Shown here piece by piece: positions 1-62,919 of a stretch of 64,000 bases of DNA. The DNA is from an uncultured Nitrososphaerales archaeon (lineage in GTDB: Archaea; Thermoproteota; Nitrososphaeria; Nitrososphaerales; Nitrososphaeraceae): the NCBI GenBank assembly GCA_963713605.1, contig CAVQMO010000010.1, forward strand, positions 416,001-480,000. The letters run 5' to 3'. The notes under the pieces are model-generated. The model had not been told where the DNA came from, ran no database searches, and was given only the letters and a program-made list of their open reading frames with translations. The stretch's first letter is position 1. Every line of letters starts with the position of its first letter. A program made the translations under genes and the position numbers.

Positions 1-1797
1 TCAGAGAAATAGCATATATTTTGGAAACGGGGATAACCGAAAAAGGCAAAGAAGACCAAAAAACGAAACTAGGTCTAATTTTTAAGATCAGGTCTTATAG
101 AAGGGCGGCAGATGTGATAGAGAACCTCTATCCTGAGATAGATGAATTATATAAGACAGAGAAACTAAACGGGCTTTTAAAATTACCTTCTATTGGTAAA
201 GCTATTGCCTTGAAACTTGAAGAATATATTACTACAGGTAACCTGAGCTATTATGAAGATCTAAAGAAGAAAATTCCGATAAATATTAGCGAATTCATGA
301 ATTTAGAGGGAATAGGACCGAAAACAATCGTAGCGCTTTACAACGTGCTCAAAATTCAAAACATCTCCGAGTTAGAAAGGGCAGCGAATGAAGGCAAAAT
401 TAGGAAAATTCCTGGTTTTTCTCAAAAACGCGAAGAAGTTATTCTGAAAAGAATTCAGTTTCTTAAGAAAGGCAAGGAAAGACGATTAATTGGTGAAATC
501 TACCCGCTTGTTAAGAAAATCGAGGAACGACTTACAAGTATTGCGGGTATTAGAGATGCCATAGCAGCTGGCTCTTTTAGAAGGATGAAGGAAACAGTGG
601 GAGACATAGACTTCTTGGTTTCGGTAGCAGAAAGATCCGACAGTACTACTAAAGCCAAAATAATTGATTATTTTACGAGAATGCCTGAGGTTAGAGAAAT
701 AATCGGCAAAGGATCAGCCAAAGCATTCGTAAAGCTCAGAAATGGGGTACAGGCAGATCTGTTGGTAGTCCCTGAAGATAGCTTCGGTGCAGCACTTCAG
801 TATTTCACAGGAAGCAAAGAACACGGCGTAGCATTGCGGAAAGTAGCTCTATCAAGAGGTTCTAAGTTAAGCGAGTGGGGAGTATTTGATGGTAACAATC
901 ATAGAGTTGCGGGCCGAACGGAAGAAGAAGTATATCAATTCTTAGGCCTGGAATGGGTTCCTCCGGAAATTCGAGAAAATAAAGGAGAGATTGAGCTCGC
1001 AGCTAAAAAGAAAGGCAATCTTCGCAAGAAGGAAAGTAAAAAGACAGAAGCAAACCTACCTCAATTAATCGATTATAACGATCTGCAGGGAGATCTTCAA
1101 GTTCACAGCAACTATACTGACGGAGCTTTCTCAATAGAAGAAATGGCACAAAATGCAAGGGTTAGGTTTGGATTGAAATACATAGCTTTATCGGATCACA
1201 CGAAGAGCCTCAAGTTAGCCAATGGACTTGATGAGCAACAATTAATCGAACAGTCAAATAAGATTGCTGAAATCAATGATGAAAATAAGGAGACAGGTTT
1301 TCGTATACTTTCAGGCGCTGAGGTAAATATTCAAAAAGATGGATCGCTTGATATTCCCAATAATGTACTGGACAGGCTGGACATCGTAGGGGCTGCCATT
1401 CATTCTAATTTTTCCTTACCGATTGATATGCAAACTAATAGATTGATAGAAGCAGCCAAAAATCCAAGCGTCGACATTATTTTTCATCCTACCGGCAGAA
1501 TAATCAATAGACGGGACGGGTATCCCGTAGATATTGCCCGGCTGATCGAGACTGCAAGGGACACAAAAACTGTTCTTGAAATAGACGCACATTATAATAG
1601 ACTTGATCTCAAAGATGAGGTACATACGGATGGCCGTCGACAACGATGCAAATCTCGTAATCGATTCAGATGCCCACCATCCTCTACATTTTGCTTTCTT
1701 GAGATTTGGCATCGGTCAGGCAAGAAGAGGGTGGGCAGAGAAACCGCGTATCCTGAATGCTCTACCCGTTCGTCAGCTGCTAGATAGTTTAAAGTAA
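1..1797 (+). CDS. polX: DNA polymerase X family with C-terminal PHP domain (5' end outside window; frameshift near 1620)
   Basis: HhH motifs (LPSIGKAIA, LEGIGPKT, IPGFSQK); palm GSFRRMKETVGDIDFLV plus third Asp in QADLL; LQYFTGSKEH. PHP motifs DLQVHS..TDG, SDH, HPTGR, RLDL, with DSDAH in the continuing frame 1603..1797. Frame is open back to the window edge (REIAYILE). Confidence 0.95.
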
Positions 1798-4543: not shown

Positions 4544-5407
4544 TTAATCATTCCTTCTGTTACTCCTTGAAGAAGATGATGGTCGCTCCAAACTTGCCTT
4601 CAAAGCTGATATCAAATCTTGTGCTTGCTGAGGCTCCTTGGTTACTTGTCTAACCACGCGGACCTTCCCTTTTGCCTTTGCATTTATTAGCTTTTCTAAT
4701 TCTTCTGTATATTCATCATGGTAACGGGAAATATCAAAATCTTTAGTCGTTAAGTTTTCTACTAACAAATGGCCTAAGGATCTTTCTTTTTCGTCAATCG
4801 AAGGAACTTTGGTCTCTGATATCTCCGTGATTGCCTCAAGAGGTTTTAATTCACTCAAGTAGTGAAGTGTGTGCAGGACAAGTCCCCTTTGATAGGCTCT
4901 TATAGCAACTAAGTGCTCTTTTTCCCCCCTTAAGACTACCTTACCGATTGCAGCCTTTTTTGTATCATGTAAAACTTTCACTAGCAGGGAATAAGCTTTG
5001 TCTTGAACGGCTGGTGCAGAATTGCCCTTTAACTTCTTTCTCCCTCTCTTATCCGTTGAGTCAGGCGCTATGTAATAGCTCTTCTCTACAAACAATGGGT
5101 CAAGCTCTTGTTCATCGATAAATTCTTTAATATCTATGGTCCTTGTGCTTTCGACAGCAATTTTTTCTAAATCTTGTTTTTCAATTACTACATACTGGTC
5201 CTTGGCGATTTCATATCCTTTCTTTATTTCAGAATATGCTACTTCCCTTTCTTCGACTGGACACCATTTCTTATATTGTATTCTATGTCCTTCTTTATCA
5301 AGCTGATTAAATGAAAAATCTTTTGAGGTATCGATTGTAGTGTAAAGCCTAACAGGTACATTGACTAATCCAAACGATATGCTGCCTGTCCATATAGTGG
5401 AGACCAT
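4544..5407 (-). CDS. ku: Prokaryotic Ku DNA end-binding protein
   Basis: IWTGSISFGLVNVPVRLY, RIQYKKWCP, EIKKGYE, TIDIKEF, SYYIAP, AAIGKVVLR, DEYTEELEKLINAK, DLISALKASL. ATG at 5407. Confidence 0.96.
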   Translation of the reverse strand: MVSTIWTGSISFGLVNVPVRLYTTIDTSKDFSFNQLDKEGHRIQYKKWCPVEEREVAYSEIKKGYEIAKDQYVVIEKQDLEKIAVESTRTIDIKEFIDEQELDPLFVEKSYYIAPDSTDKRGRKKLKGNSAPAVQDKAYSLLVKVLHDTKKAAIGKVVLRGEKEHLVAIRAYQRGLVLHTLHYLSELKPLEAITEISETKVPSIDEKERSLGHLLVENLTTKDFDISRYHDEYTEELEKLINAKAKGKVRVVRQVTKEPQQAQDLISALKASLERPSSSSRSNRRND

Positions 5408-5707
5408 TAGGATCAAATTAATTTGATTCTTAAGTTTAATAAATTCAGCTGTACATTTCTAGGGTTCTTCCCTCAGAGGATGAAATTGCAGAAAAATGAT
5501 TACACCTGATCTTTGATAACAAAGTTACGGAAAAATATTACTGAGATCCAAAGCATGACTTCAGATAATACCTGTGCTAGGAAACGTTGCCAGAATGGCA
5601 GTTCAAAATCATATACCCCATAGCTAGCTAGCGATTGAGCTCGGGGCCATCTCATAAGTTGAAATTATTAAATAGTATAAGTAGCAAGGACCAGCTGATC
5701 AACGTAG

Positions 5708-6208
5708 ATGTATGAAGATGCCTATGTTTATGATTCGGTTGGGAAAAAGATTGGTAAGGTCTCTAGGGTTATTAATTCAGATTATATCATAGTAAGAAAA
5801 AAAGGACTAATATCAGACGAAGAATTTCAGATACCAGTTGCTTGTGTCTCCCATTTCAATTCATCGGAAGATCATCTCTCTATCACTCTAACCATAGACC
5901 AATCGTGTCTAAAGCATGGGTTTGAGGTAATCAGTGGAGGTAGTGGCGGTGCAATTCCTTCTGCTCACGAGCCGGAGCTTATCCCAACTTCGAAGGAAAC
6001 TATACGTTACACAGTGGATGAAACACAACATGGTAACAACCAATCCAGTCTAAATGATACTAGCTTTACCAATTCCTCATCTTACATGGTTGATCGGTTG
6101 CCTCAAGATTCATCTTTCATATGTGATATGTGTTCGAAAAGACTTGACAATCAAGAAAAATTGCAAGCACATCGTGAGTTGGAGCATAATACTGCCACAG
6201 ATGTGTAA
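5708..6208 (+). CDS. PRC-barrel/DUF2171-like domain plus C-terminal C2H2 zinc finger
   Basis: VYDSVGKKIGKVSRV..DYIIV...EFQIP; C-terminal FICDMC...LQAHRELEH. Confidence 0.7.
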   Translation: MYEDAYVYDSVGKKIGKVSRVINSDYIIVRKKGLISDEEFQIPVACVSHFNSSEDHLSITLTIDQSCLKHGFEVISGGSGGAIPSAHEPELIPTSKETIRYTVDETQHGNNQSSLNDTSFTNSSSYMVDRLPQDSSFICDMCSKRLDNQEKLQAHRELEHNTATDV

Positions 6209-6499
6209 TTTGCAGATATCAAGGAACCAAGTCAGTAATAATTGAAGCTTTGATTATCAATGGATATCATAGTGGCTGTCTGCTGTTGCCACTGACTAAC
6301 TGATTGGTGACGAGGGACGATTTGCTCTTCCATTGGTATTTTAGCAAGCATTTTTTACCATGCTTAATATAGTATTGACTCGAAAAATATACTATTTTCT
6401 TCCATGTTTAGCTATTTAGATTTGGTAGAATTTTTCTTTCCTCTCTAGGACTGATAACATAACTAATATGGGTGTTATCTCAAGCAACCTTAAACTATT

Positions 6500-7367
6500 A
6501 TGCCTGCTAGACTCATTGACGGAAATGCTGTTTCTGCGACTATAAGGTCCAGGCTTACAAATAGTGTTAGCGAGTTAAAGGAGAAAGGGATCTCGCCCTG
6601 TCTGGCTACAATTCTCGTAGGCAATGATCCCGCCTCTGCCGTTTATGTACAAAACAAGCAGAAGGCAGCCAAGGAGGTCGGACTAGTCACCCAAGATTAT
6701 CGGTTAAAAGAAGATCTGCAACAGAATGAGTTGGCAATTCTAATCGATACTTTGAACAACGACTCTCGTGTCCATGGAATTTTAGTGCGAGCTACCCCTT
6801 CCAAAACATATTAACGAATTCGATATAATTAACAAAATCTCGCAAAGAAAAGATGTCGATGGATTGACCTCGATTAATTCAGGTTTACTACTGCATGGCC
6901 AGGCTTCGCTGAAACCATGTACTCCATCTGGGATTATAGAATTGTTGGACTATTATGATATTGTGATTAGGTCTCAGAATGTAATATTAGTAAACAGATC
7001 CATCCTTGTAGGAAAGCCTCTAGCTTTGCTTATGCTTGAGCGTGATGCAACAGTTACAATATGTCATTCGAAATCAGTAAATTTAAATCGTCTCTTGTTA
7101 CAATCAGATATAATAATTACTGCTGTTGGGGACAGAAATAAATTCGTTCTTAAACCTGAAATGATCAAAGAAAAAGCCGTTGTAATAGATGTAGGAACTA
7201 ATAGACAATCCGGTCAATTACTCGGGGATGTGGACTTTGAATCTGTCAAAGAAAAAGCCTCTTGGATCACTCCCGTTCCAGGAGGAGTAGGTCCAATGAC
7301 CATAGCTATGCTTTTGAGTAACACCGTAACGGCTGCGCTAAATTCTGAATCTGTATCACCCGTTTAG
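6500..7367 (+). CDS. folD: Methylenetetrahydrofolate dehydrogenase/cyclohydrolase (frameshift near 6789)
   Basis: LATILVGNDPASAVYV..K. Removing one G restores HGILVQLPLP. Also KDVDG, PCTPSG, DATVTICHS, ITPVPGGVGPMTIAML. Confidence 0.96.
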
Positions 7368-7782
7368 CCTGCAATCTGCATAAACTATTCAGCAAAAGTG
7401 TCCTCCCTCCCCTCAGACTTTTATAAATGCCCTTTAAGCGAATGCAATAAATATCATTTTTCAGAGGGATTAAAATTTTGCCAAAAGTTTATCTCCATAT
7501 TCTGCTCAACATATTACTCAATCGAAAGAACAAAAAATTGGAGAGCGACTGGCCAATATTCTTCTGCTAGACGTATTAACGAAGATTAACTGATCGCTCC
7601 ATTTCATTTTCAGTTATTAATTCTAAAATTCTGATTGCTTCCTGCAGGTATGAGGCATATAGATGATAAACTATTCTGTAAATAGTCAACCGAAAACTAC
7701 TATCATAAATATAGAGCCGCCATAAGTTCTCCTAACTGAGTGTGAACTCAGAACGACGATTGATGTAACAGAAATTCTTACG

Positions 7783-8472
7783 GTGCTTGCTATAACCGCA
7801 TTTGCAGGTGGTACCTCCTTTGTCGGTGCTTTGATAGCACGAAAAAGAAATTTCTCTGAACAACAGGTGTTATTTTTCACGGCGTTTGGAGCAGGCATCC
7901 TGATGGCTGCAGCAGTATTTGAAATGGTCATAGAGGCTGAAACAGAACTAGGCATCGTAATTACAATATTGGCATTTTTGGGAGGAGCTATTATTTTCAC
8001 ATTAGCCGACATCATTGCAGAAAAAAAAGGTGGTGGAGCTGGGATATTGCTTGGTATCGGACTGGATTCAATACCAGAATCCCTCGCCATAGGAGCATCC
8101 ATTGCGGCTGCTGGTCCTGCAATGGCACTAGCGATTTTAATCGGAATACAGAATGTTCCGGAAGGTATTGCATCATATCGAGAAATGATGACTGGAAAGA
8201 CTGCATTCAATAATAATCCAAGGAAGGCACTCACTGCAATAGGTGTTGTATCTATAATTCCGATATTCCTTGGACTAGTGGGACTATTCTATTTGCAAGG
8301 TATGGCAGATATTATTGCTATCATCTTGGCTCTGTCCGCAGGGGGTATTTTCTATATGCTTTACTATGATATGATACCAAAAGCCCATAAAGATCGAAAG
8401 TGGCTGCCAACATTCGGCGCTGTTTTGGGTTTTATCATTGGATTTGCTATTGTAAGAACTATAGGAGGCTAG
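7783..8472 (+). CDS. ZIP (ZupT/GufA-like) divalent metal transporter
   Basis: About 7-8 hydrophobic helices; FGAGIL, LDSIPESLAIG, IQNVPEG, SAGGIFYM, MIPKAH. Confidence 0.85.
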   Translation: MLAITAFAGGTSFVGALIARKRNFSEQQVLFFTAFGAGILMAAAVFEMVIEAETELGIVITILAFLGGAIIFTLADIIAEKKGGGAGILLGIGLDSIPESLAIGASIAAAGPAMALAILIGIQNVPEGIASYREMMTGKTAFNNNPRKALTAIGVVSIIPIFLGLVGLFYLQGMADIIAIILALSAGGIFYMLYYDMIPKAHKDRKWLPTFGAVLGFIIGFAIVRTIGG

Positions 8473-8811
8473 TGCTCTTTGAAAAGGGAATTCCATAACC
8501 GCCTTCTCAATTAACCAGTATATACCTTCAAAGATGCAATGGACCTCGTTCGGGTGTTTCTGTGTCCCCAATTAAGTGCCATAATAGATTATACTCTGCC
8601 TAATCCTATTTTGTTTATTAGGCAACAGTCATCAATTCGGCCTCAATGAAGGTACAAATGCAGTTTGAAGACTCAAATTGCTATATTCATACTCAAAGAA
8701 ATCTCAATTCGAATCTTACAAACCTGCAAGCAAATCTACATTGGTTCTTCATTTAAGCCGAAGTTACAAAGTTGTGATTTATGAAAAAAAAAGTAAGGTA
8801 AAGTAATAAGG

Positions 8812-9951
8812 TTGACTCTCGTAGCCGTTGTTAGATTTGTATTGGAAAAACAACAAGAATCAATATCATATGATAGCTATGTCAACCGATTGCAACAATT
8901 ATTGGATTCTAAAAAGATTACAATTGAACACTTCGACCATTTCAAATCAAGAGGCATCGAAATTATTCGTCCCTTAAAAGATTTCGGTTTGAGCTCTCTT
9001 GGCCGTGCATTGCCAGAAATTGTGATAGGAGCCTCATATGATTTTATTAAAAGAATGAAGATTCCATACCAAGCGACTAGCTTCTTGGTTGCAAATACTA
9101 AATCTAACATGAATGGATGGTACGTGTACAAAATTCCTGAACAGCCTAAGGGTGGACTCATTCTTTTGAGCGGGGGTAAAAGAAGGCTTGGTGATAATAT
9201 TTTTGCTTCCACACATAGAATAATCTTGGGGAGAAAAGCGATTCTAGTCAGTGCAATTAATTTAATGACTAATAAGAATAATATCTGGAATTGGCATTTT
9301 TTTGGGGATCATTTAAAGCAGGACAATGAATCACTGTATAATGATCTGGTAAAACTCGAGACCATTTTGAATCGTAATGATGACTCCCCTGACAACATGA
9401 AAAGAAATAGCCCCCATTACTACATAATAATCGCGAGATCGGAATCAACTTTTAAGAAATTAGAAATCGTTGGGAACTATTTGCAAAATAAAATTGCAGT
9501 TTTGAACCCTGAGAATAACATACACACGATTTTTGTTACTAATAAATCTGGATCTGACTTCGCTTCAAAAAGAATTGAGGAATCAAGTTTGGTTAGTTAT
9601 ATTGCTACAGGAGAAAACTTTAATCTGTATCAAGGAATGCAAGTACTAAAGCGAAAGTATGGGATTGACATGATACTAAATGACGGCGGACGTATAATGT
9701 CAGATGGAGTTAGGGGGGAAGGACTTTTGGGTGAAGAGAGAATGTCTTTAGAACCATTCCCTGGTGAGGATATCTTTCCTCCGGACAAGTACATCGATCC
9801 TACAACAGTAGCTGGATCACAAGGTCTAGGTTTAGACGGTAGTGAGATAGAAGGATCCATCTTATTACACTCAATCGACATTGAGGATGAGAAATTGAAC
9901 GTATATATTTACCCCTTGGAGGAACGTAAAGTACTGCAAAGTCAAGGATGA
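8812..9951 (+). CDS. Hypothetical protein with divergent RibD-C/DHFR-like reductase features
   Basis: Long clean ORF. FLVANTKSNMNG, AILVSAINL and LKRKYGIDMILNDGG resemble RibD-C motifs in the expected order. Confidence 0.5.
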   Translation: MTLVAVVRFVLEKQQESISYDSYVNRLQQLLDSKKITIEHFDHFKSRGIEIIRPLKDFGLSSLGRALPEIVIGASYDFIKRMKIPYQATSFLVANTKSNMNGWYVYKIPEQPKGGLILLSGGKRRLGDNIFASTHRIILGRKAILVSAINLMTNKNNIWNWHFFGDHLKQDNESLYNDLVKLETILNRNDDSPDNMKRNSPHYYIIIARSESTFKKLEIVGNYLQNKIAVLNPENNIHTIFVTNKSGSDFASKRIEESSLVSYIATGENFNLYQGMQVLKRKYGIDMILNDGGRIMSDGVRGEGLLGEERMSLEPFPGEDIFPPDKYIDPTTVAGSQGLGLDGSEIEGSILLHSIDIEDEKLNVYIYPLEERKVLQSQG

Positions 9952-10327
9952 AGATCTATTGAAAGTATTAGGTAATCTAGATTATGGTATTAAATAACAA
10001 AATTCTGGTCGAATTTCCTCCCTATCCCTCAGCCCAAAATTGCTCTTGACTATTGTTTTTCGACCTTAATTACAGTAATTAGAGCTATATGGAAGACAAG
10101 CTTTTGATAAATGGAAGACTTTCCTCAGTCTTCAGTCATCTATGTGGACGTTTTAGTATCCTATTAACTCAAGATCAAACGCATTGGGAACATTGAAGAT
10201 TTGATATATGTCGTACAGTCAGAATGTTTGTGCTATTGTCTTCAAAACCACTATTTGTAGGCCGAATAACAAGAAATGAGAAAGGATGATAAAACTAATG
10301 AATAGAACTAAACAGAGGATTAAATAT

Positions 10328-11621
10328 ATGAAAAGGAAGAAACTTAACGATACCAGTGTTAGCCCAACCATGGATAATCATAACACTATTGAAAACGTAC
10401 TGAGTACTTCAAGGCGGCGGATCTTTGGGGGCTTTTAGCTGTGGAGTATTCAAAGCTATCGCAAAGTACAATATCAAAATAGATATTATTGCAGGTACTT
10501 CTATTGGTGGCATAAACGCTGCGATTATAGCTGGAAGCAAAGATGAAAAACACCCAGAAGAAGCATTGGAGCGCTTCTGGTTAGAGTTATCAGAGAGCTT
10601 TGTGGACTTGGATCAAATAGTGCCTCCTCCTTCAATTTCTGTCCCGGAATTTGTGGAAAAGTCGCTTCTACTCCCGTCTAAGTATTTGTATAGTGGTAAT
10701 GTCTCATCCTCGACCCCCATCGCAAAAGATAACCTATCAAGACTGGATGACCGCGAAAATAATATAAAGATGAGGCAAATTCGATCCTTCTACAGCTCGG
10801 CCATATTTGGGAATGAGAAAATGTTTAGACCAAGATGGAGGCAGGAAACTGCTCTATCAGATCCAGAGTTTTTCACGCCACAAAACTGGACTTATATGTA
10901 TGACCATACTCCCCTGGTGAAAACCTTAGAAAACTATATCGACTACGATAAATTAAGACCCGACGGAAATCCTAACTCACGTTTGATATTAACAGCAGTA
11001 AATATCCTAAATGCAGAACCTTTAACATTTGACAGTTCAAAGGAACAAATAACACCTAAGCACATACTTGCCACTTCAGCTTACCCTTTATACAACTTTC
11101 GTTGGGTGGAGGTCAAAGAAGGAATATATTCCTGGGATGGAAGTCTGCTTAGTAATACTCCGTTAAGGGAGGTAATAGATGCTTCACCTGTAAATAACAA
11201 GCGGATATTTATTGTTGAAAATTATCCAAAAAAAGTTGATCAGCTCCCGAAGAACTTGCCTGAAGTCTATCATAGAGCAAGAGATATTATATTTTCAGAT
11301 AAAACCGAGCATAATGTAACAATGTCAAAAGTAATTACGATGTACCTAAAGTACATCGACGAACTCTACCAAATGATCGAAGATCATATCGATTTGTCAA
11401 AAATCGATCAAGAACAACTCAAAAAAATTCGCCATAAATATGAGAAGATCAAGCGTGAGCGTGGAGCTGAAATAAAGGATATCTTGTACATAACACGCGA
11501 TGAACCTTTCCCCCATATCTACGAGAATGCAGATTTCTCTCCCCAAACGATAAAAGCTTCGATCAGAGAGGGCGAGATGAAGACTCTTAAAATGTTAAAA
11601 AGGCGGGCGAATCGAAGCTAA
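10328..11621 (+). CDS. Patatin-like phospholipase (frameshift near 10403)
   Basis: Removing one A gives ENVLVLQGGGSLGAF. Nucleophile motif GTSIG; WDGSLLSNTPL. In-frame ATGs at 10328 and 10370. Confidence 0.9.
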
Positions 11622-11784
11622 AAGAGCGTATAGTATGAATGAAATGGATGCGATTCTATCGTTAATGATTTATTTCTCTGCTCTTGCCTGAATTTCATCT
11701 CATTTCTTGATACCCCCTAGTTTAGAAAATTAATCGTCAAACGGCTCGGAATTCTTTTTTATGGTGCTAAGCTGTTTGACTCAT

Positions 11785-13959
11785 CTATACAGCATCTAAC
11801 AGTTTCGCTAGATCTTGTCGACTATCAAGGATATCAGACCAACTTGATAAGAGTTTTCTGATGTTATTCTTGCCAACGATCTTTTCAGTAATGTTTAATA
11901 GCGTAAAATCTGTCGGCAAGATCTGATCTATTATCTCCCAATCAAATGGCATTGAAATGGTGGCACGTTCAATAGGTCTCACTGAAAGAACCGATGCAAT
12001 TGTCTTTCCTTTCGCATTTTGGTTGTAATCAAAGAAAATTTTTCCTCGTCTTTTAGAAGTATCCCAATCCATTGTAATCATATCGGGTCGTTTGTTCATC
12101 AGTGTTCTTCCAATGATTTCAGCAAAGCTTCTTGCCTGGTGATATGTGTAATTCGAAGAAATAGGTACAAAAATATGAATTCCCGTTTTACCCGAAGTTT
12201 TAACGTACGATTTGATTTTCAATTTGTCAAAAATCTCAGATTTTAGGAATAGAGCTACTTCAACTGTCTTTATAAACGCGGTACGGTTGTATTCTGGTTC
12301 CTCATTTGTGCTAGTTTCTAAGCCCGAGTAGATATATGGATCTAAATCAAAAACAACGAAATCCGGGTGATTGAGGCCACATTTTTCTTCATCTAGTGCA
12401 GTAGAATTCTTTAAGCAGGCCTCGTAGTCAACAACTCTACTATACCATGGGTGTAGTTCTATACAGCCAAGGTTTGCCAACCAAAGCAATGTTTCCTTAT
12501 TATTGCAGATCAAATAGTTGGTCAACCTCATTGCAGATTCGGAATAAAGCTTCACCGAGTCTACAAAATCTGGCTTTTCCATGTTCCAATTTTTTTGATA
12601 AAAGTGCTTACTATTGATTCCGTCAGGATATCTGCTCAAGGACAAGGGTCTGTCTTTAATCAAGGGAAGCAAGTAGCCGCTTATTTTGTCATAGTATTCA
12701 ATCAAGTCTCCCTTCGTTATCTCATGGTGGTAACGACTCTTCGGCCAAAAAACCTTATCTAGGTTAGAAAAGCTATACTTCATACTATTGGCAGTTACAC
12801 TGGAAGGGGTACCAGAATTTAGCAATTGTGATGTCGACCGCGAGGGCGATATTGATGATATTGACGATGAAATAGATGATGCTACCGAAAGCTCATTAGA
12901 ATTTTGTGGTTTTACGTTTGATAGCTCTTCTACATGTTTAGGCTTTTCAAGAGTGCACTCCTGAGGCTTCTTGTCGTCTCTAACCCTTAAAAATATTGGA
13001 GCCCTCATAATCTTGTCCTTTGTCCATCCGTCAAACTTAACCTCAACTACTAGAAGCGGCTTTACCCAGACTGGCTCCCTATTGGTATAAGGAATGTAAC
13101 TGACAGGACTCTCATCGATAATTATTTTTTGCAATTTATTGAAAATCTCGACGATTTGTGGGAAGTCAAATCCACTTCCAGAATGTCCAACAAAGACAAG
13201 CTCTCCTCTATCGAACACAGCAAGCAGCAGAGACCCAAAGTAGCCTTTTCTATTACCTTCACCGGGAGTATTTCCAATCACCACACAATCCTGAGTCTGT
13301 ATATTTTTGATTTTTAACCAATCATTTGTTCTAGCCCCCTGCAGATATTTGCTTTGTTTATTCTTTGCAATGATGCCCTCTAGGTTGAGTGCCATGATAT
13401 TCTCGAAAAGTTCTATGCCTTTTCCTTCAAAGGATTCTGATATCCTTATCACCTTTTCGCCGCTTCGATTCAAATTCAAATCTAGGACACTTGAAAGTAA
13501 TTCTCGCCGCTTCCACAACTCTAAATTCTCGAGGTTTTTCCCATCTAAGTATAAAATATCAAAAATGTAGAATGTAGAAGGTATTTCATTAGAAAGGTGT
13601 TGTATATCTAAACTGTTTTCTACATTCATTCTTCTCTGATGACTTTGAAAGTCTGGACGGCCCTGCTCATCTAAAACTACTATCTCTCCATCAAGCACAA
13701 TGGAATTCTTGCATCTTATGATCGAAGACGTTATGATGGATTTGATAATTTCTGGATATCTGTGACTAATGGATTTATTAGTTCTCGATTTGAGCTCAAG
13801 TATGTTTTTACTTTTGTGATAAAACAGGATAGCTCTTACTCCATCCCATTTGATTTCGAAATCCCATTTGTTATCATTAAATGGTTTATCAACTGCTGTA
13901 GAAAGCATAGGTCTTATTTTACTCGGGAAATCAGATGATGGGAGATGTTGCATTTCCAT
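11785..13959 (-). CDS. ligD: LigD ATP-dependent ligase domain fused to primase-polymerase (POL) domain
   Basis: Ligase motifs EIKWDG, LDGEIV, YIFDIL, EGIIAK, WLKIK, RAPIFLRVRDDK; Ser-rich linker; POL motifs SNLDKVFWP, TKGDLIEYY, RYPDG, FYQKN, ELHPW, FDLDP, KTSGKTGIH, FFDYNQN, SVRP. Confidence 0.96.
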   Translation of the reverse strand: MEMQHLPSSDFPSKIRPMLSTAVDKPFNDNKWDFEIKWDGVRAILFYHKSKNILELKSRTNKSISHRYPEIIKSIITSSIIRCKNSIVLDGEIVVLDEQGRPDFQSHQRRMNVENSLDIQHLSNEIPSTFYIFDILYLDGKNLENLELWKRRELLSSVLDLNLNRSGEKVIRISESFEGKGIELFENIMALNLEGIIAKNKQSKYLQGARTNDWLKIKNIQTQDCVVIGNTPGEGNRKGYFGSLLLAVFDRGELVFVGHSGSGFDFPQIVEIFNKLQKIIIDESPVSYIPYTNREPVWVKPLLVVEVKFDGWTKDKIMRAPIFLRVRDDKKPQECTLEKPKHVEELSNVKPQNSNELSVASSISSSISSISPSRSTSQLLNSGTPSSVTANSMKYSFSNLDKVFWPKSRYHHEITKGDLIEYYDKISGYLLPLIKDRPLSLSRYPDGINSKHFYQKNWNMEKPDFVDSVKLYSESAMRLTNYLICNNKETLLWLANLGCIELHPWYSRVVDYEACLKNSTALDEEKCGLNHPDFVVFDLDPYIYSGLETSTNEEPEYNRTAFIKTVEVALFLKSEIFDKLKIKSYVKTSGKTGIHIFVPISSNYTYHQARSFAEIIGRTLMNKRPDMITMDWDTSKRRGKIFFDYNQNAKGKTIASVLSVRPIERATISMPFDWEIIDQILPTDFTLLNITEKIVGKNNIRKLLSSWSDILDSRQDLAKLLDAV

Positions 13960-14626
13960 TTTGGTAGAATATAAAAGAATCCATTTCGTAATTTTTTACC
14001 TTGCTTTGGACAAGATTAGAAGTAGAATCAACTCGAGAGTTAGAAAATTCATTACTCACATTGTTTTTTTTTGTAAAAGTATTTTTTTTTGTTTGTGACA
14101 ATACAGAATTAGGCAGAGAGGATGTCAGGTCCTCTTCTGATGCGAACTCATCATTGTACTTTATCAAAAGCCACTGGTTTTCCCGGACAGTTCTAATTAA
14201 TGAGAATTTACCATTTACCTTGTTCCCATGTAAACTAAATGTGATCTTTCCTCTATCAAAATGCTCCGAAAAGTTTTCATTAGATTTTTCTAACTTATAG
14301 AAACCAGTATCCCATACAAGAACTGTACCTGCCCCATAATTTCCCTCAGGGATCGTACCTTCAAACAAAAGATAATCGAAGGGATGGTCTTCCGTAAGAA
14401 CAGCAAGGCGTTTTATTTTGGGATTGAGAGAAATCCCTTTTGGCACGGCCCATGATTTTAGAACGCCATTTTCATCTTCGAGTCTAAAGTCATAGTGCAA
14501 TCTTCTAGCATTATGCTTCTGAATGACAAAGTGCCTTCTGATATCCTTCTTTTGTCCATTAGTGGGAGTTCCAACAGGTTCAGGAGTCTCCGCAAAGTTT
14601 CGTTTCCTATTATATTTTTCAAGCAT
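13931..14626 (-). CDS. LigD 3'-phosphoesterase (PE) domain protein
   Basis: YNRKRNFAETPEP, FVIQKHNARRLHYDFRLE, SWAVPKG, RLAVLTEDHP, FEGTIPEGNYGAGTVLVWDTG, WLLIK. Overlaps the LIG-POL start by 29 nt. Confidence 0.95.
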   Translation of the reverse strand: MLEKYNRKRNFAETPEPVGTPTNGQKKDIRRHFVIQKHNARRLHYDFRLEDENGVLKSWAVPKGISLNPKIKRLAVLTEDHPFDYLLFEGTIPEGNYGAGTVLVWDTGFYKLEKSNENFSEHFDRGKITFSLHGNKVNGKFSLIRTVRENQWLLIKYNDEFASEEDLTSSLPNSVLSQTKKNTFTKKNNVSNEFSNSRVDSTSNLVQSKVKNYEMDSFIFYQNGNATSPII

Positions 14627-15263: not shown

Positions 15264-15779
15264 CTATCTTATCTTCGATCTTTTAATTTTTTCCTGCAAA
15301 AGCATAACACCTTGAATCAAAGTCTCGGGACGGGGGGGACAACCAGGAACGTACACATCAACAGGAATGATCCCGTCGACGCCCGGAAGCACATTATATG
15401 AGTCAATATATAGGCCACCTGTAATCGCGCAAGCTCCCATCGCCACGACATATTTAGGATCAGGCATTTGATCATAAACCATACGTAGCCTCGGTGCCAT
15501 CTTTCTTGTAACGGTCCCTTGTACGACTATTAAATCACATTGTCTAAGGGAACCAAATGCCTCTATTATCCCAAATCTCTCTGCATCGTATCTAGGTCCA
15601 GAAACAGCACCAAATTCAACACTACAACAAGCTGTCTCAAGATGAACCGGCCACAATGACCAAACTCTCCCCCAGTTTATTGCAAATCCAAGTGGCTTAT
15701 CTAGTGCGTTAATTAAAACGTCTCCAATTTTGCTTACCATGACATTGAAGTTAGATTGATTGAGCAGTTCGGTCTTCAA
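15264..15779 (-). CDS. nuoB: NADH-quinone oxidoreductase subunit B (stand-alone)
   Basis: TACCSVE, RQCDLIVVQGT, MGACAITGG, VDVYVPGCPPRPE. Likely TTG start at 15779 (ORF extends to 15809). Confidence 0.93.
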   Translation of the reverse strand: MKTELLNQSNFNVMVSKIGDVLINALDKPLGFAINWGRVWSLWPVHLETACCSVEFGAVSGPRYDAERFGIIEAFGSLRQCDLIVVQGTVTRKMAPRLRMVYDQMPDPKYVVAMGACAITGGLYIDSYNVLPGVDGIIPVDVYVPGCPPRPETLIQGVMLLQEKIKRSKIR

Positions 15780-15908
15780 TCTTTTTATAGCCTCTCTGAG
15801 ATCCAACAATACTCCCCATACATCCTATTTAATACTTCAGAATACCTCATTCTATGAAGAGCATTCTAAATTATCAAAAAATGTATAAACGATAACTAAT
15901 TTCAAGTA

Positions 15909-16880
15909 ATGACATTGGGATTAAGAATCGGATTCCACGTATCAATTTCAGGAGGAATTTCAAACTCCGTGGATAATGCACTCAAGGAAGAATGTACAGC
16001 ATTTCAAATATTCAGCAGAAATCCTCGAGGGTGGGCGGCCAAACCTTTAGATGACAAGGACGTAGCATTATTCAAGAATAAACTGTCAGGAGACTCTGAT
16101 GGTAACGTATCAACCAGAAGTACGCAGGCGAAACCCCTCCATATCGGTAAAGGAGAGATGGCGAGAAAGGGCAAGCAGGAAATCGATAGAAATGCTATTT
16201 TCGTCCATATGCCTTATCTTCCGAACCTTTCTTCACCAAATAAACAAATTTATGATCAATCTGTGGCTGTCTTGACAGATGAACTCAATCGATGTGATGC
16301 TTTAGACGTACGCTTTTTAGTAGTTCATCTGGGAAGTCACCAGGGGGAAGGAATCAAGAAGGGGGTTGAACAATTGGTTATGGCATGCTCTCATGCTTTC
16401 GAGTCGACTTTGGGGGAGAACGCTGTCTCTATACTTTTAGAAAATAGTGCCGGTCAGAAGAACACCGTTGCCAGTGATTTTGCAGAATTAAGAATAATAC
16501 TCGATAGGCTGTATGATTATAATTCAAGTAGCAAAAAAGATCGATACGGCGTATGTTTGGATACTTGCCATGCATTTGCTTCGGGTTACGATCTTGCCTC
16601 AGAAGAAGCAGTTAATGTCACGATGGATAAATTCGACTCGCAAGTTGGATTAGGGCATCTCAAACTTATACATTTGAATGACTCGAGAGACAAGTTCTTT
16701 TCTCGCAGAGACAGGCATGAGCATGTAGGCCTCGGAGAAATAGGGAAGGAAGGGTTTAAGGCATTCTTGAAACATAAATCCCACATAAATACACCCCTAA
16801 TAATGGAAACTCCAATCGATAATAGAAGAAGCAATTCAGATAACCTAAAGTTTGTTAAGACTATTATTGGTAGCACTTGA
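15909..16880 (+). CDS. nfo: Endonuclease IV (AP endonuclease)
   Basis: IGFHVSISGG, FQIFSRNPRGW, HMPYLPNL, HLGS, LLENSAG, CLDTCHAFASG, HLNDS, DRHEH, IMETP. Confidence 0.95.
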   Translation: MTLGLRIGFHVSISGGISNSVDNALKEECTAFQIFSRNPRGWAAKPLDDKDVALFKNKLSGDSDGNVSTRSTQAKPLHIGKGEMARKGKQEIDRNAIFVHMPYLPNLSSPNKQIYDQSVAVLTDELNRCDALDVRFLVVHLGSHQGEGIKKGVEQLVMACSHAFESTLGENAVSILLENSAGQKNTVASDFAELRIILDRLYDYNSSSKKDRYGVCLDTCHAFASGYDLASEEAVNVTMDKFDSQVGLGHLKLIHLNDSRDKFFSRRDRHEHVGLGEIGKEGFKAFLKHKSHINTPLIMETPIDNRRSNSDNLKFVKTIIGST

Positions 16881-61691: not shown

Positions 61692-62919
61692 CTAGTCAGA
61701 TGTTGTCGCAGTTGACATTTTTAGGTCTTTTGCAAATCTCATTACGTACGGAGTTATGAACGTAGTTATTATGGTTACTATACCTATTATTGGGAATATG
61801 CTAGTCGAGATAGCTCCACTTTGCTGACCAGTCTTAGCTACAACCAAGGACATTTCAGCTCGTGCAGACGATAAACCTAGCCCAGTTCTTAGAGCAACAT
61901 TCTTATCATATCCAGCCTTAAGTAACACAACGCTTATTATCAACAATTTTGAGGCAAATGTAGTTACTATTAGAATCAAGGCGGGTAGAATTAGAAATGG
62001 GATCTGCGATATATCCATAAGTGCACCTATCGAAATAAAGAATAGTGCAGCAAATACATCCCTTAATGGAACTGTTACTACCCTTGCTATTGCTGCACTC
62101 TTGGATTCGGCAACTAATACTCCTGCGAGAAATGCTCCTGTTGCTACCGACAATTCAAGAGATGATGCCAAGAAAGATAATCCGAAAGCTAAGCCAAGTA
62201 TAGAGATAAGGAGTAAGTTATAATCATTAGTCTTACCTATTTTGTCTATTATGTTTGGAATAAACCTTGAACCTACGGTAAGAGTTATTCCGATAAACGC
62301 AGTTACAATTGCAACCGGGATTGCAATCTGAATTATGGAAGAAGTTTGATTACTATCATTTATTCCCTCAATTGCTATGGACTGAAATATTCCAAGGGCC
62401 GTAATGGCGATAATATCTTCAACAATCAAGACTCCTAGCATAAGCGTGGCTGACTTGTCTCTAATCATATTAAGCTCCTCTAGGATTCGAACTATAACTA
62501 TCGTTACTTGAAATAGACATACATAACGCAAGGAATAGTGAATCTCTAAAAGAGAACTGTAAGGCCTGAGCCACATAATACGAAATAATCATAGTACCAA
62601 TTGTCTCACTTAGTGCTACTATAATAGATATTCTACCCACTGACCTTAGTTTAGCAATGGGAAAGTCAGTACCAATGACGAAAAGAAACATAATAATCCC
62701 TAACTCAGAAAAAGCGTTTAGAGTATCAATGCTTTGAATCAGGCTAAATGGCGGAGTATGTGGACCTATTATCATACCGGCTATAATATATCCTATAATC
62801 ATAGGTTGTTTTAGTTTATGAGTAACTGCAAGTATCACGGCGGCGACAATCATGACTACGGCAAAATCCTGAACAAGAAACACGGAAGACAGTGAATCAC
62901 CAGGAACGTTTGATTGCAT
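61692..62919 (-). CDS. Cation:proton antiporter, CPA2/KefB-like (frameshift near 62505)
   Basis: KQPMIIGYIIAGMIIGP, ELGIIMFLF, SISS|TIVIV, LIVEDI, GAFLAG, LRDVFAALFFISIG. Confidence 0.92.

Follow-up and report, generated by a model that had tools for sequence, protein, structure and literature searches.

The window analysed here, a stretch of 64,000 nucleotides from an uncultured Nitrososphaerales archaeon, carries genes for Ku and for the three LigD domains PE, LIG and POL. An initial annotation had placed Ku, PE and LIG-POL genes with intact catalytic residues on one strand, and profile matches and residue checks bore this out. The following features are used below.

21-1787, plus strand: polX (PolX-PHP), listed as a neighbour only, without assigned membership in the system; frameshifted at 1619 in the assembly
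4544-5416, minus strand: ku, single-domain prokaryotic Ku, 290 aa from a TTG start
11785-14626, minus strand: ligD, three-domain PE-LIG-POL, two overlapping ORFs in the assembly; about 946 aa without the extra base (arithmetic)
11785-13959, minus strand: ORF LIG-POL, 724 aa (PF01068, PF04679, PF21686; TIGR02776 458 bits, cut-off 373)
11785-12771, minus strand: POL domain, AEP primase-polymerase (PF21686 E 1.1e-70, 238 bits versus 27)
12970-13908, minus strand: LIG domain, ATP-dependent ligase (PF01068, PF04679; TIGR02779 268 bits, cut-off 228)
13931-14626, minus strand: ORF with PE (PF13298 E 8.9e-41; TIGR02777 204 bits, cut-off 144)
13978-13979, no strand assigned: extra base in the PE-LIG linker which shifts the frame (1-nt gap versus G003)
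14192-14626, minus strand: PE (3'-phosphoesterase) domain (PF13298 over residues 36-145; G003 orthologue aligned to PaePE 2LJ6)
15909-16880, plus strand: nfo, endonuclease IV (TIGR00587 245 bits), likewise listed as a neighbour without assigned membership

Ku and ligD are located 6.4 kb apart and five genes on the opposite strand lie between them. The position on the same strand within 10 kb therefore does not reflect an operon, and the two genes cannot share a transcript in this genus. Three other species (G003, G010 and G011) show the same gene order, polX-PAC2-Ku-folD-patatin-ligD-nuoB-nfo, and in G059, G069, G100 and L156 Ku directly adjoins ligD. The polX gene adjoins the locus in G003, G010 and G011; regions of 15-16 kb from G059, G069 and G100 showed none. 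Among the loci examined, nfo was next to the locus in those of the same genus only. A DNA-repair island including polX and nfo was considered as well and was rejected, because this arrangement is limited to the examined loci of the same genus and does not extend to G059, G069 and G100. An Rfam search of the window gave no match. For the RNA runs X19 and X20 the shares were 0.05-0.06. The same contig contains amoA, which identifies the host as an ammonia-oxidising archaeon, as the initial annotation had proposed.

Profile searches with Ku revealed matches to PF02735 (E 2.7e-43) and TIGR02772 (248 bits, cut-off 150), and the structures 9VNQ, 8V53 and 9I91 matched at E ~1e-34. The ATG at 5407 corresponds to the start used in relatives and is the likelier start of ku. 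P0334 and P0371, two near matches, carry the names Nitrosopolaris and Nitrososphaeraceae Ku, and a search of the ESM Atlas returned generic Ku clusters only. A viral vector for Ku was dismissed, as there was one viral contig only, with 33% identity.

The PE domain contains all six catalytic residues (H38, H44, D46, R48, H81 and Y85), with roles assigned from the accessible parts of PMC4797286 and PMC3082917. These first six positions are kept in 15/15 family rows covering PE; 24 family rows cut by the locus edge were left out of this count. In the N-peptide R9 and E16 are kept (for Arg14 and Glu21), and N10 takes the place of Asp15 of P. aeruginosa PE, which is required for 3'-phosphatase activity according to the accessible parts of the same two papers. 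Asn is present at this position in 21/22 family rows; the column is also variable in bacteria (Asp in 23/64) and the alignment of the N-end is unsure.

In LIG, the adenylation lysine K37 (numbering of the 724-aa ORF) and the residues of ligase motifs I-VI are present, and 37-39 of 39 family rows contain the motif residues. POL scored 210.6 against TIGR02778, just below the cut-off of 214.7. Its aspartates D538, D540 and D644 are kept in 39/39 family rows. Two inserts surround the DxD motif, the first with a cysteine pair, C515/C527, kept in 36 and 38 of the 39 rows. The AlphaFold model of POL (pLDDT 93) was matched by Foldseek to Prim-PolC, M. paludicola Pol and the Mtb and Pae PolDom (E 1e-26 to 4e-20). 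Comparison with the G003 orthologues yielded dN/dS values of 0.16 for PE, 0.15 for LIG, 0.17 for POL and 0.07 for ku, the lowest of the four; the neighbours nfo and patatin showed 0.17 and 0.22. With matches for all domains (Ku TIGR02772, PE TIGR02777, LIG TIGR02779, POL PF21686) and purifying selection, a complete set of Ku and LigD, as initially claimed, is supported at the level of sequence.

Among 201 genomes of the Nitrososphaeraceae, Ku is present in 135, POL in 137 and PE in 138. Ku and POL occur together in 125/201, Ku only in 10, POL only in 12 and neither in 54; the genomes are kin and not independent, so these counts overstate the coupling. The system was found in 13-14 of the 18 genera sampled. 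The family rows form one clade each for POL (SH 100), LIG (99), PE (98) and Ku (100/100), and Ku and LigD of the window fall inside this family-wide Nitrososphaerales NHEJ clade. The accessible text of Abby et al. 2020 (PMC7554672) describes NHEJ (Ku FAM004995, LigD FAM010452) as a gain of the Nitrososphaerales ancestor, reports it for three Ca. Nitrosocosmicus genomes and for RRmetagenome_bin19 (two Ku) and states its loss in Nitrososphaera; this text gives no domain order, and the tree listed there under NHEJ covers Ku only. A further prior report is PMC13006922. The system is already described for the lineage and common in the family, neither rare nor new, and is no discovery in itself. The initial annotation had considered it rare and novel, and had itself noted that prior descriptions of a common system would remove the novelty; profile counts place it in about two thirds of the 201 genomes, and the system was on record in 2020. 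Compared with the accessible text of that report it is the same system in the same lineage, without a difference in kind; the present analysis adds a wider genus sample and the demonstration of a single PE-LIG-POL chain, at the strength given below.

We consider it very probable that the locus encodes a family-typical, vertically inherited prokaryotic NHEJ system consisting of Ku and one three-domain LigD (PE-LIG-POL), and that the split of ligD is an assembly indel. In the assembly as written the single reading frame over PE, LIG and POL is interrupted. The orthologue in G003 is one ORF of 956 aa, and a single ligD frame of 930-962 aa is present in 10/13 same-genus genomes. Of the public runs, X1 and X5 cover the frameshift site and X7 and X9 do not; the extra base is missing from the near-identical contigs of both covering runs (depth 10.5 of 10.5 in X1 and 5.89 of 5.89 in X5). 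Run X1 may be the source sample of the assembly; over 2.2 kb its record 8 also differs from the window in 11 letters and has 25 gap positions. The contigs represent near-identical strains, not provably the same clone, which leaves room for a strain-private frameshift. The same kind of +1 base occurs in polX, PAC2 and folD within the same 15 kb, and about 31% of the tested genes are frameshifted in the window's assembly (frame switches in 51/163 G003 ORFs versus 22/164 in the reverse direction). Based on these comparisons, an assembly error is the most likely source of the extra base near 13978 and a single PE-LIG-POL chain the most likely native form, so that the separate PE gene of the initial annotation becomes part of one ligD. 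A genuine split in this strain would yield PE and LIG-POL as two polypeptides (ATG at 13959) or involve programmed frameshifting, and would represent a transitional stage on the way to the arrangement of Methanocella. The in-frame ATG directly before the LIG domain, whole domains in both ORFs and two A9 runs about 100 nt upstream of the frame shift would fit such a split, but in G003 the ATG codon is AAA (Lys) and both A9 runs are interrupted. Together with the gap versus G003, the public contigs without the base and the indel-rich assembly, this led us to dismiss a natural split or programmed frameshift as improbable. It should serve as a warning that most split genes of this assembly go back to indel errors. 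There is next to no likelihood of a recent bacterial transfer, contamination or a chimeric contig: apart from the bacterial type of the genes and an estimated genome contamination of 4.5%, nothing was found in favour of it, and it was dismissed in view of amoA on the contig, the synteny in three other species and a base composition like that of the neighbours (locus GC 0.365-0.384, GC3 0.33-0.38, neighbours' GC3 0.30-0.44). In addition, the nearest relatives of POL, LIG and Ku in the trees are same-genus genomes. The check for a chimeric contig suggested initially thus gave no sign of a chimera, because the gene order recurs in G003, G010 and G011.

Ku and LigD are a textbook pair. For the NHEJ system favoured here, the genes, domains, catalytic residues, POL fold, purifying selection, co-occurrence of Ku and LigD and one clade per domain were observed directly, and the mechanism can be modelled on the systems characterised in mycobacteria, Pseudomonas and Methanocella. 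By analogy, Ku dimers would bind and protect broken ends and then recruit LigD. POL would anneal the ends and fill gaps with ribonucleotides, PE would trim 3' ribonucleotide flaps and 3'-phosphates, and LIG would seal the nick. Such end joining would count in non-replicating cells without a second chromosome copy; the initial annotation had suggested that it may help cells to survive desiccation or dormancy. A biochemical or genetic test of thaumarchaeal Ku-LigD was not found in the literature searched. LigD probably acts also in Ku-independent excision repair of oxidative lesions. It appears unlikely that LigD, in the manner of Prim-PolC/LigC, mainly fills and seals gaps in base excision repair independently of Ku, with the genes for endonuclease IV and PolX close by and the joining of double-strand breaks second in importance. 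Mycobacterial Prim-PolC, an excision-repair enzyme and not an NHEJ PolDom, is indeed the top phmmer and Foldseek match of POL (TM 0.79, 32% identity), the locus is flanked by nfo and polX in the genus, and the accessible text of PMC5663958 reports for M. smegmatis that LigD needs no Ku to bind gapped DNA and that ligD mutants are sensitive to oxidants. Unlike Prim-PolC, however, the window POL has no Loop 3 (in the alignment, with a deduced offset, the orthologue ends within the helix preceding it), is part of a fusion with PE and LIG and occurs together with Ku. POL is accompanied by Ku in 125/137 genomes. In other genera Ku and ligD are direct neighbours, and no nfo or polX was seen nearby there. 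Ku is also the most constrained part.

The likeness to Pseudomonas LigD noted initially applies to the domain order PE-LIG-POL (Pseudomonas loci L181 and L199), and PE matches PaePE with E 3e-45. It does not extend to POL: Pseudomonas POL is only 29% identical and far off in the POL tree, the two inserts belong to the window POL, and PE differs by the Asn at Asp15. Pseudomonas as donor was dismissed because of the distance in the POL tree. With the AP-NHEJ of Methanocella paludicola the system would share the same four activities; the POL fold matches 5DMU (E 1e-23) and the six catalytic residues of PE are kept. However, M. paludicola has separate operonic Ku, Pol, PE and Lig proteins (accessible text of PMC4797286), whereas here LIG and POL are fused, PE is fused to them in relatives and the unlinked Ku lies 6.4 kb off.

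In the POL tree the family clade is sister to an insert-bearing bacterial clade within a branch of SH 100. This clade comprises Chloroflexota, Melainabacteria, some Gemmatimonadota and Proteobacteria; its POL is 39-51% identical to the window POL and shares both inserts, including a DPYIYSG-type stretch. The bacterial insert stretches compared did not show the cysteine pair, which is a family-typical feature of Nitrososphaeraceae POL. The Ku of these bacteria has only about 38% identity and is placed apart from the Ku of the family, which groups with archaeal Ku. The acquisition from bacteria proposed initially thus holds, as far as the trees indicate, for LigD-POL, with LigD of bacterial type, and is doubtful for Ku. 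These relationships hint at a mosaic origin. Tentatively, Ku may come from an archaeal lineage (Aenigmatarchaeota, Micrarchaeia, other Thermoproteota) and the POL of the fused LigD from this little-studied bacterial clade, with the conserved cysteine pair added in the family as a possible disulfide or redox switch. If true, soil ammonia oxidisers would represent a large reservoir of fused LigD among archaea, in which Ku and LigD are paired across domains. What remains is a modest use: the fused LigD of this family is archaeal and carries an insert-bearing polymerase that is so far unstudied, and for future efforts to edit the genomes of soil ammonia oxidisers an end-joining pathway of their own would be of importance. 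The LIG tree resolved no sister group; in the PE tree the family PE groups with Bacteroidota-type PE, at SH 93 only.

The Ku and LigD genes of the window show the following matches.

4544-5416, reverse strand: Ku (TIGR02772, 248 bits, cut-off 150)
11785-13959, reverse strand: LIG-POL ORF, ATP ligase part (LIG; TIGR02779, 268, cut-off 228)
11785-13959, reverse strand: the same ORF, LigD primase-polymerase part (POL; PF21686, E 1e-70)
13931-14626, reverse strand: LigD 3'-phosphoesterase ORF (PE; TIGR02777, 204, cut-off 144)

With TIGR02778 the POL part scored 210.6, slightly below the cut-off of 214.7. The initial annotation had placed Ku, PE and LIG-POL on the same strand within about 10 kb; positions and strand are correct, but a separate PE gene is unlikely. 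The spacing between ku and ligD is 6.4 kb, and PRC-like, folD, ZIP, unknown and patatin genes are located between them on the opposite strand, so that ku and ligD do not form one operon here. Pfam and NCBIfam searches with the 379-aa protein encoded in this interval (8812-9951) gave no match; the protein is conserved within the genus (78-89%). The genome (4.09 Mb, 15 contigs, 87% complete, 4.5% contaminated) belongs to an ammonia-oxidising archaeon, since amoA is present on the same contig, C10. It contains at least four near-identical copies of nuoB, in four places on C10 (including 15264-15809 of the window) and on C12, with 91-97% to the protein of the same-genus genome G003. A DUF72 gene is convergent to ligD in G003 (L095:11439-12167); in the genome of the window it is found elsewhere, on contig C8.

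The PE and LIG-POL ORFs, initially described as two genes, share 29 nt but are read in different frames. Comparison with G003, which has a single ligD ORF of 956 aa and 90% DNA identity at the junction, revealed one extra base near 13978-13979 as the sole frame-breaking difference. A single frame of 930-962 aa holds the match in 10 of 13 same-genus genomes; the remaining three (57-80% complete) gave weak matches to other ligases only. From 24 public sequencing runs listed, four were compared at the locus and two from different studies, X1 and X5, cover the frameshift site. The extra base is missing from both (depth 10.5 of 10.5 and 5.89 of 5.89), the contigs being from near-identical strains that are not provably the window's clone, and X1 could be the source sample. 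Among the indel rows listed, the extra base at 1619 that breaks polX is also missing from X1 and X5. Relative to G003, one base is added in each of polX (1619), PAC2 (2755), folD (6789) and ligD (13978). In a crude genome-wide comparison of ORFs of 200 aa or longer, shadow ORFs included, 51 of 163 ORFs taken from 395 kb of G003 switch frame in the window's assembly; the reverse comparison gave 22 of 164. Because the base is absent from X1 and X5, the relatives have one frame and the assembly is rich in indels, an assembly indel is far likelier than a natural split, and we treat the locus as one ligD and split genes of this assembly as probable indel errors. A Na+/H+ exchanger gene is likewise broken, at about 62470-62576, into two overlapping ORFs.

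For the analysis of catalytic residues we aligned frames of 780 aa or longer from 39 genomes of the family. Residues of the ligase motifs, labelled here with motif names and Mtb/Pae numbering, are conserved in 37-39 of the 39 rows, and every row has the three POL aspartates. The six PE catalytic residues defined for M. paludicola (in the part available of PMC4797286) correspond to H38, H44, D46, R48, H81 and Y85 of the window PE and are kept in all rows reaching them; the locus edge cuts the N-terminal end in 24 of 39. The catalytic motifs are thus intact, as the initial annotation had stated. The P. aeruginosa PE requires Asp15 of its N-peptide for 3'-phosphatase activity (PMC3082917, available part), whereas 21 of 22 family rows have Asn at this position, in a column that varies in bacteria too, so that the Asn need not mean that the activity is lost. 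The dN/dS values against G003 were 0.07 for Ku, 0.16 for PE, 0.15 for LIG and 0.17 for POL, the ligD domains being similar to the neighbours nfo (0.17) and patatin (0.22). The Ku-LigD set is intact and under selection. The predicted POL structure (58-row alignment; pLDDT 93, pTM 0.91) matched best Prim-PolC (E 1e-26, TM 0.79), followed by the NHEJ polymerases of M. paludicola, M. tuberculosis and P. aeruginosa. Loop 3 is the defining feature of Prim-PolC (PMC5663958, available part), but by alignment the POL stops ahead of it. A POL insert contains the cysteines C515 and C527 of the 724-aa ORF (about 12380-12420), which are present in 36 and 38 of 39 family rows and lie on short insert helices of the model; they are candidates for a disulfide or a metal role.

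Complete systems had been presented as rare in archaea. In a sample of 201 genomes of the family, including that of the window, Ku was found in 135 (126 over the cut-off; 81 of 114 high-quality genomes; 13 of 18 genera), POL in 137 (82; 14 genera) and PE in 138 (83; 13 genera). Both Ku and POL are present in 125 genomes, Ku only in 10, POL only in 12 and neither in 54; genus g30 mostly lacks the system (8/37). In the class sample Ku was detected in 20 of 39 Nitrososphaeraceae and one of four genomes of family f4, and in 0 of 257 genomes of 13 other families. The gene order of the window is repeated in three same-genus genomes (G003, G010, G011); ku and ligD are adjoining and convergent in G059 and G069, and in tandem, ku then ligD, in G100 and locus L156. 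GC and GC3 match the neighbouring genes. The system is old, vertically inherited and ameliorated. The counts and some alignments include genomes marked unpublished by the depositors (G013, G099, G176, G184; G856 and G991 in the Chloroflexota Ku search), and no conclusion hinges on them.

In the parts available, Abby et al. (PMC7554672) report a gain of NHEJ in the ancestor of Nitrososphaerales, its presence in Nitrosocosmicus and its loss in Nitrososphaera, PMC13006922 restates this for arctic clades, PMC11936186 lists four thaumarchaeal Ku carriers, bioRxiv 10.1101/2023.09.30.560322 gives all parts in 97 of 567 archaeal species by loose BLAST, and PMC7719229 gives Ku plus ligase in 10 of 243 archaea; 10.1101/2020.07.02.185041 has no bearing on the system. 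The system is therefore genuine and intact, but it is ordinary for the family and has been published before, and the novelty claimed for it falls away. A biochemical test of thaumarchaeal Ku or LigD was not found in the open-licence literature. Taking the evidence together, the locus very probably encodes a family-typical, vertically inherited NHEJ system of Ku and a single PE-LIG-POL LigD, split by an assembly indel.

Direct support for this system comes from parts, residues, fold, selection and co-occurrence; the steps of the mechanism follow characterised systems (available parts of PMC4797286 and PMC5663958) and general knowledge. By analogy, Ku dimers would load onto broken ends and recruit LigD, POL would bridge the ends and fill gaps with ribonucleotides, PE would trim displaced ribonucleotides and 3'-phosphates, and LIG would seal. 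A Ku-independent role of LigD in excision repair alongside NHEJ is plausible.

Two leads remain, the POL cysteine pair and a possible mosaic origin. In a FastTree analysis of POL (121 rows) the family forms one clade (SH 100) within a branch (SH 100) of bacterial POLs sharing both inserts, from Chloroflexota, Melainabacteria, some Gemmatimonadota and Proteobacteria and one Armatimonadota, these names stemming partly from 73 of 613 confirmed loci. The likeness to Pseudomonas LigD noted initially holds for domain order, but not for POL, which is distant in the tree. The LIG tree (113 rows) gave a family clade (99) with an unresolved sister group, and in the PE tree (113 rows) the family clade (98) stands beside Bacteroidota-type PE (93). 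Acquisition from bacteria, also proposed initially, agrees with the POL branch but is doubtful for Ku, which groups with archaeal Ku. IQ-TREE analyses (LG+G4, 61 and 68 rows; 9 of 15 Chloroflexota loci and none from the Myxococcota search; without Bacillota, Patescibacteria and Euryarchaeota rows) placed it with Aenigmatarchaeota, Micrarchaeia and the G027 Ku (92/97 and 83/96, bootstrap below 95), the next outward group being other Thermoproteota Ku (85/94). A constraint to Chloroflexota-type Ku was rejected (p-AU 0.009; group named after the trees were seen). In blastp the window Ku scored 244-253 bits with named DPANN Ku versus 202 with the best Chloroflexota Ku. The best bacterial full-length identities were 43% (201 Chloroflexota genomes) and 41% (101 Myxococcota genomes), and plasmid Ku reached about 37% in the best 25 of 716 records. 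Two archaeal Ku queries named no bacterium among the best 120 matches, most of which are nameless. The archaeal affinity is partly in print, since the Ku tree of Abby et al. (PMC7554672) prints Nitrososphaerales leaves between Archaeoglobi and Methanothrix/Bathyarchaeota, as text order without visible topology. These sequence comparisons make a mosaic origin of the family's Ku-LigD possible.

The genome carries a second full-length Ku (C11:9201-10058; L098, L002), 77% identical to the window Ku and a within-genus paralogue; a ligD search on contig C11 gave no match. Fragments of Ku are found at three other sites, C10:410890, C10:75661 and C10:272846. Ku heterodimers are possible, and two Ku copies in one bin appear in the available part of Abby et al. 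(PMC7554672). Beyond the family, the class sample contains a single Ku, in G027 (C10; L100:7156-9028), followed by a stand-alone 325-aa ligase; POL and PE were not seen in 16 kb around it. This Ku shares 69% identity with one from Aenigmatarchaeota, which argues for a separate acquisition. A different complete archaeal NHEJ arrangement, separate POL, Ku and then a LIG-PE fusion, occurs in loci L206-L216 of families f33, f37 and f58 of the same phylum, where 7 of the 11 loci show this layout as far as the fetched flanks reach; 8 of 25 genomes of family f37 carry Ku.
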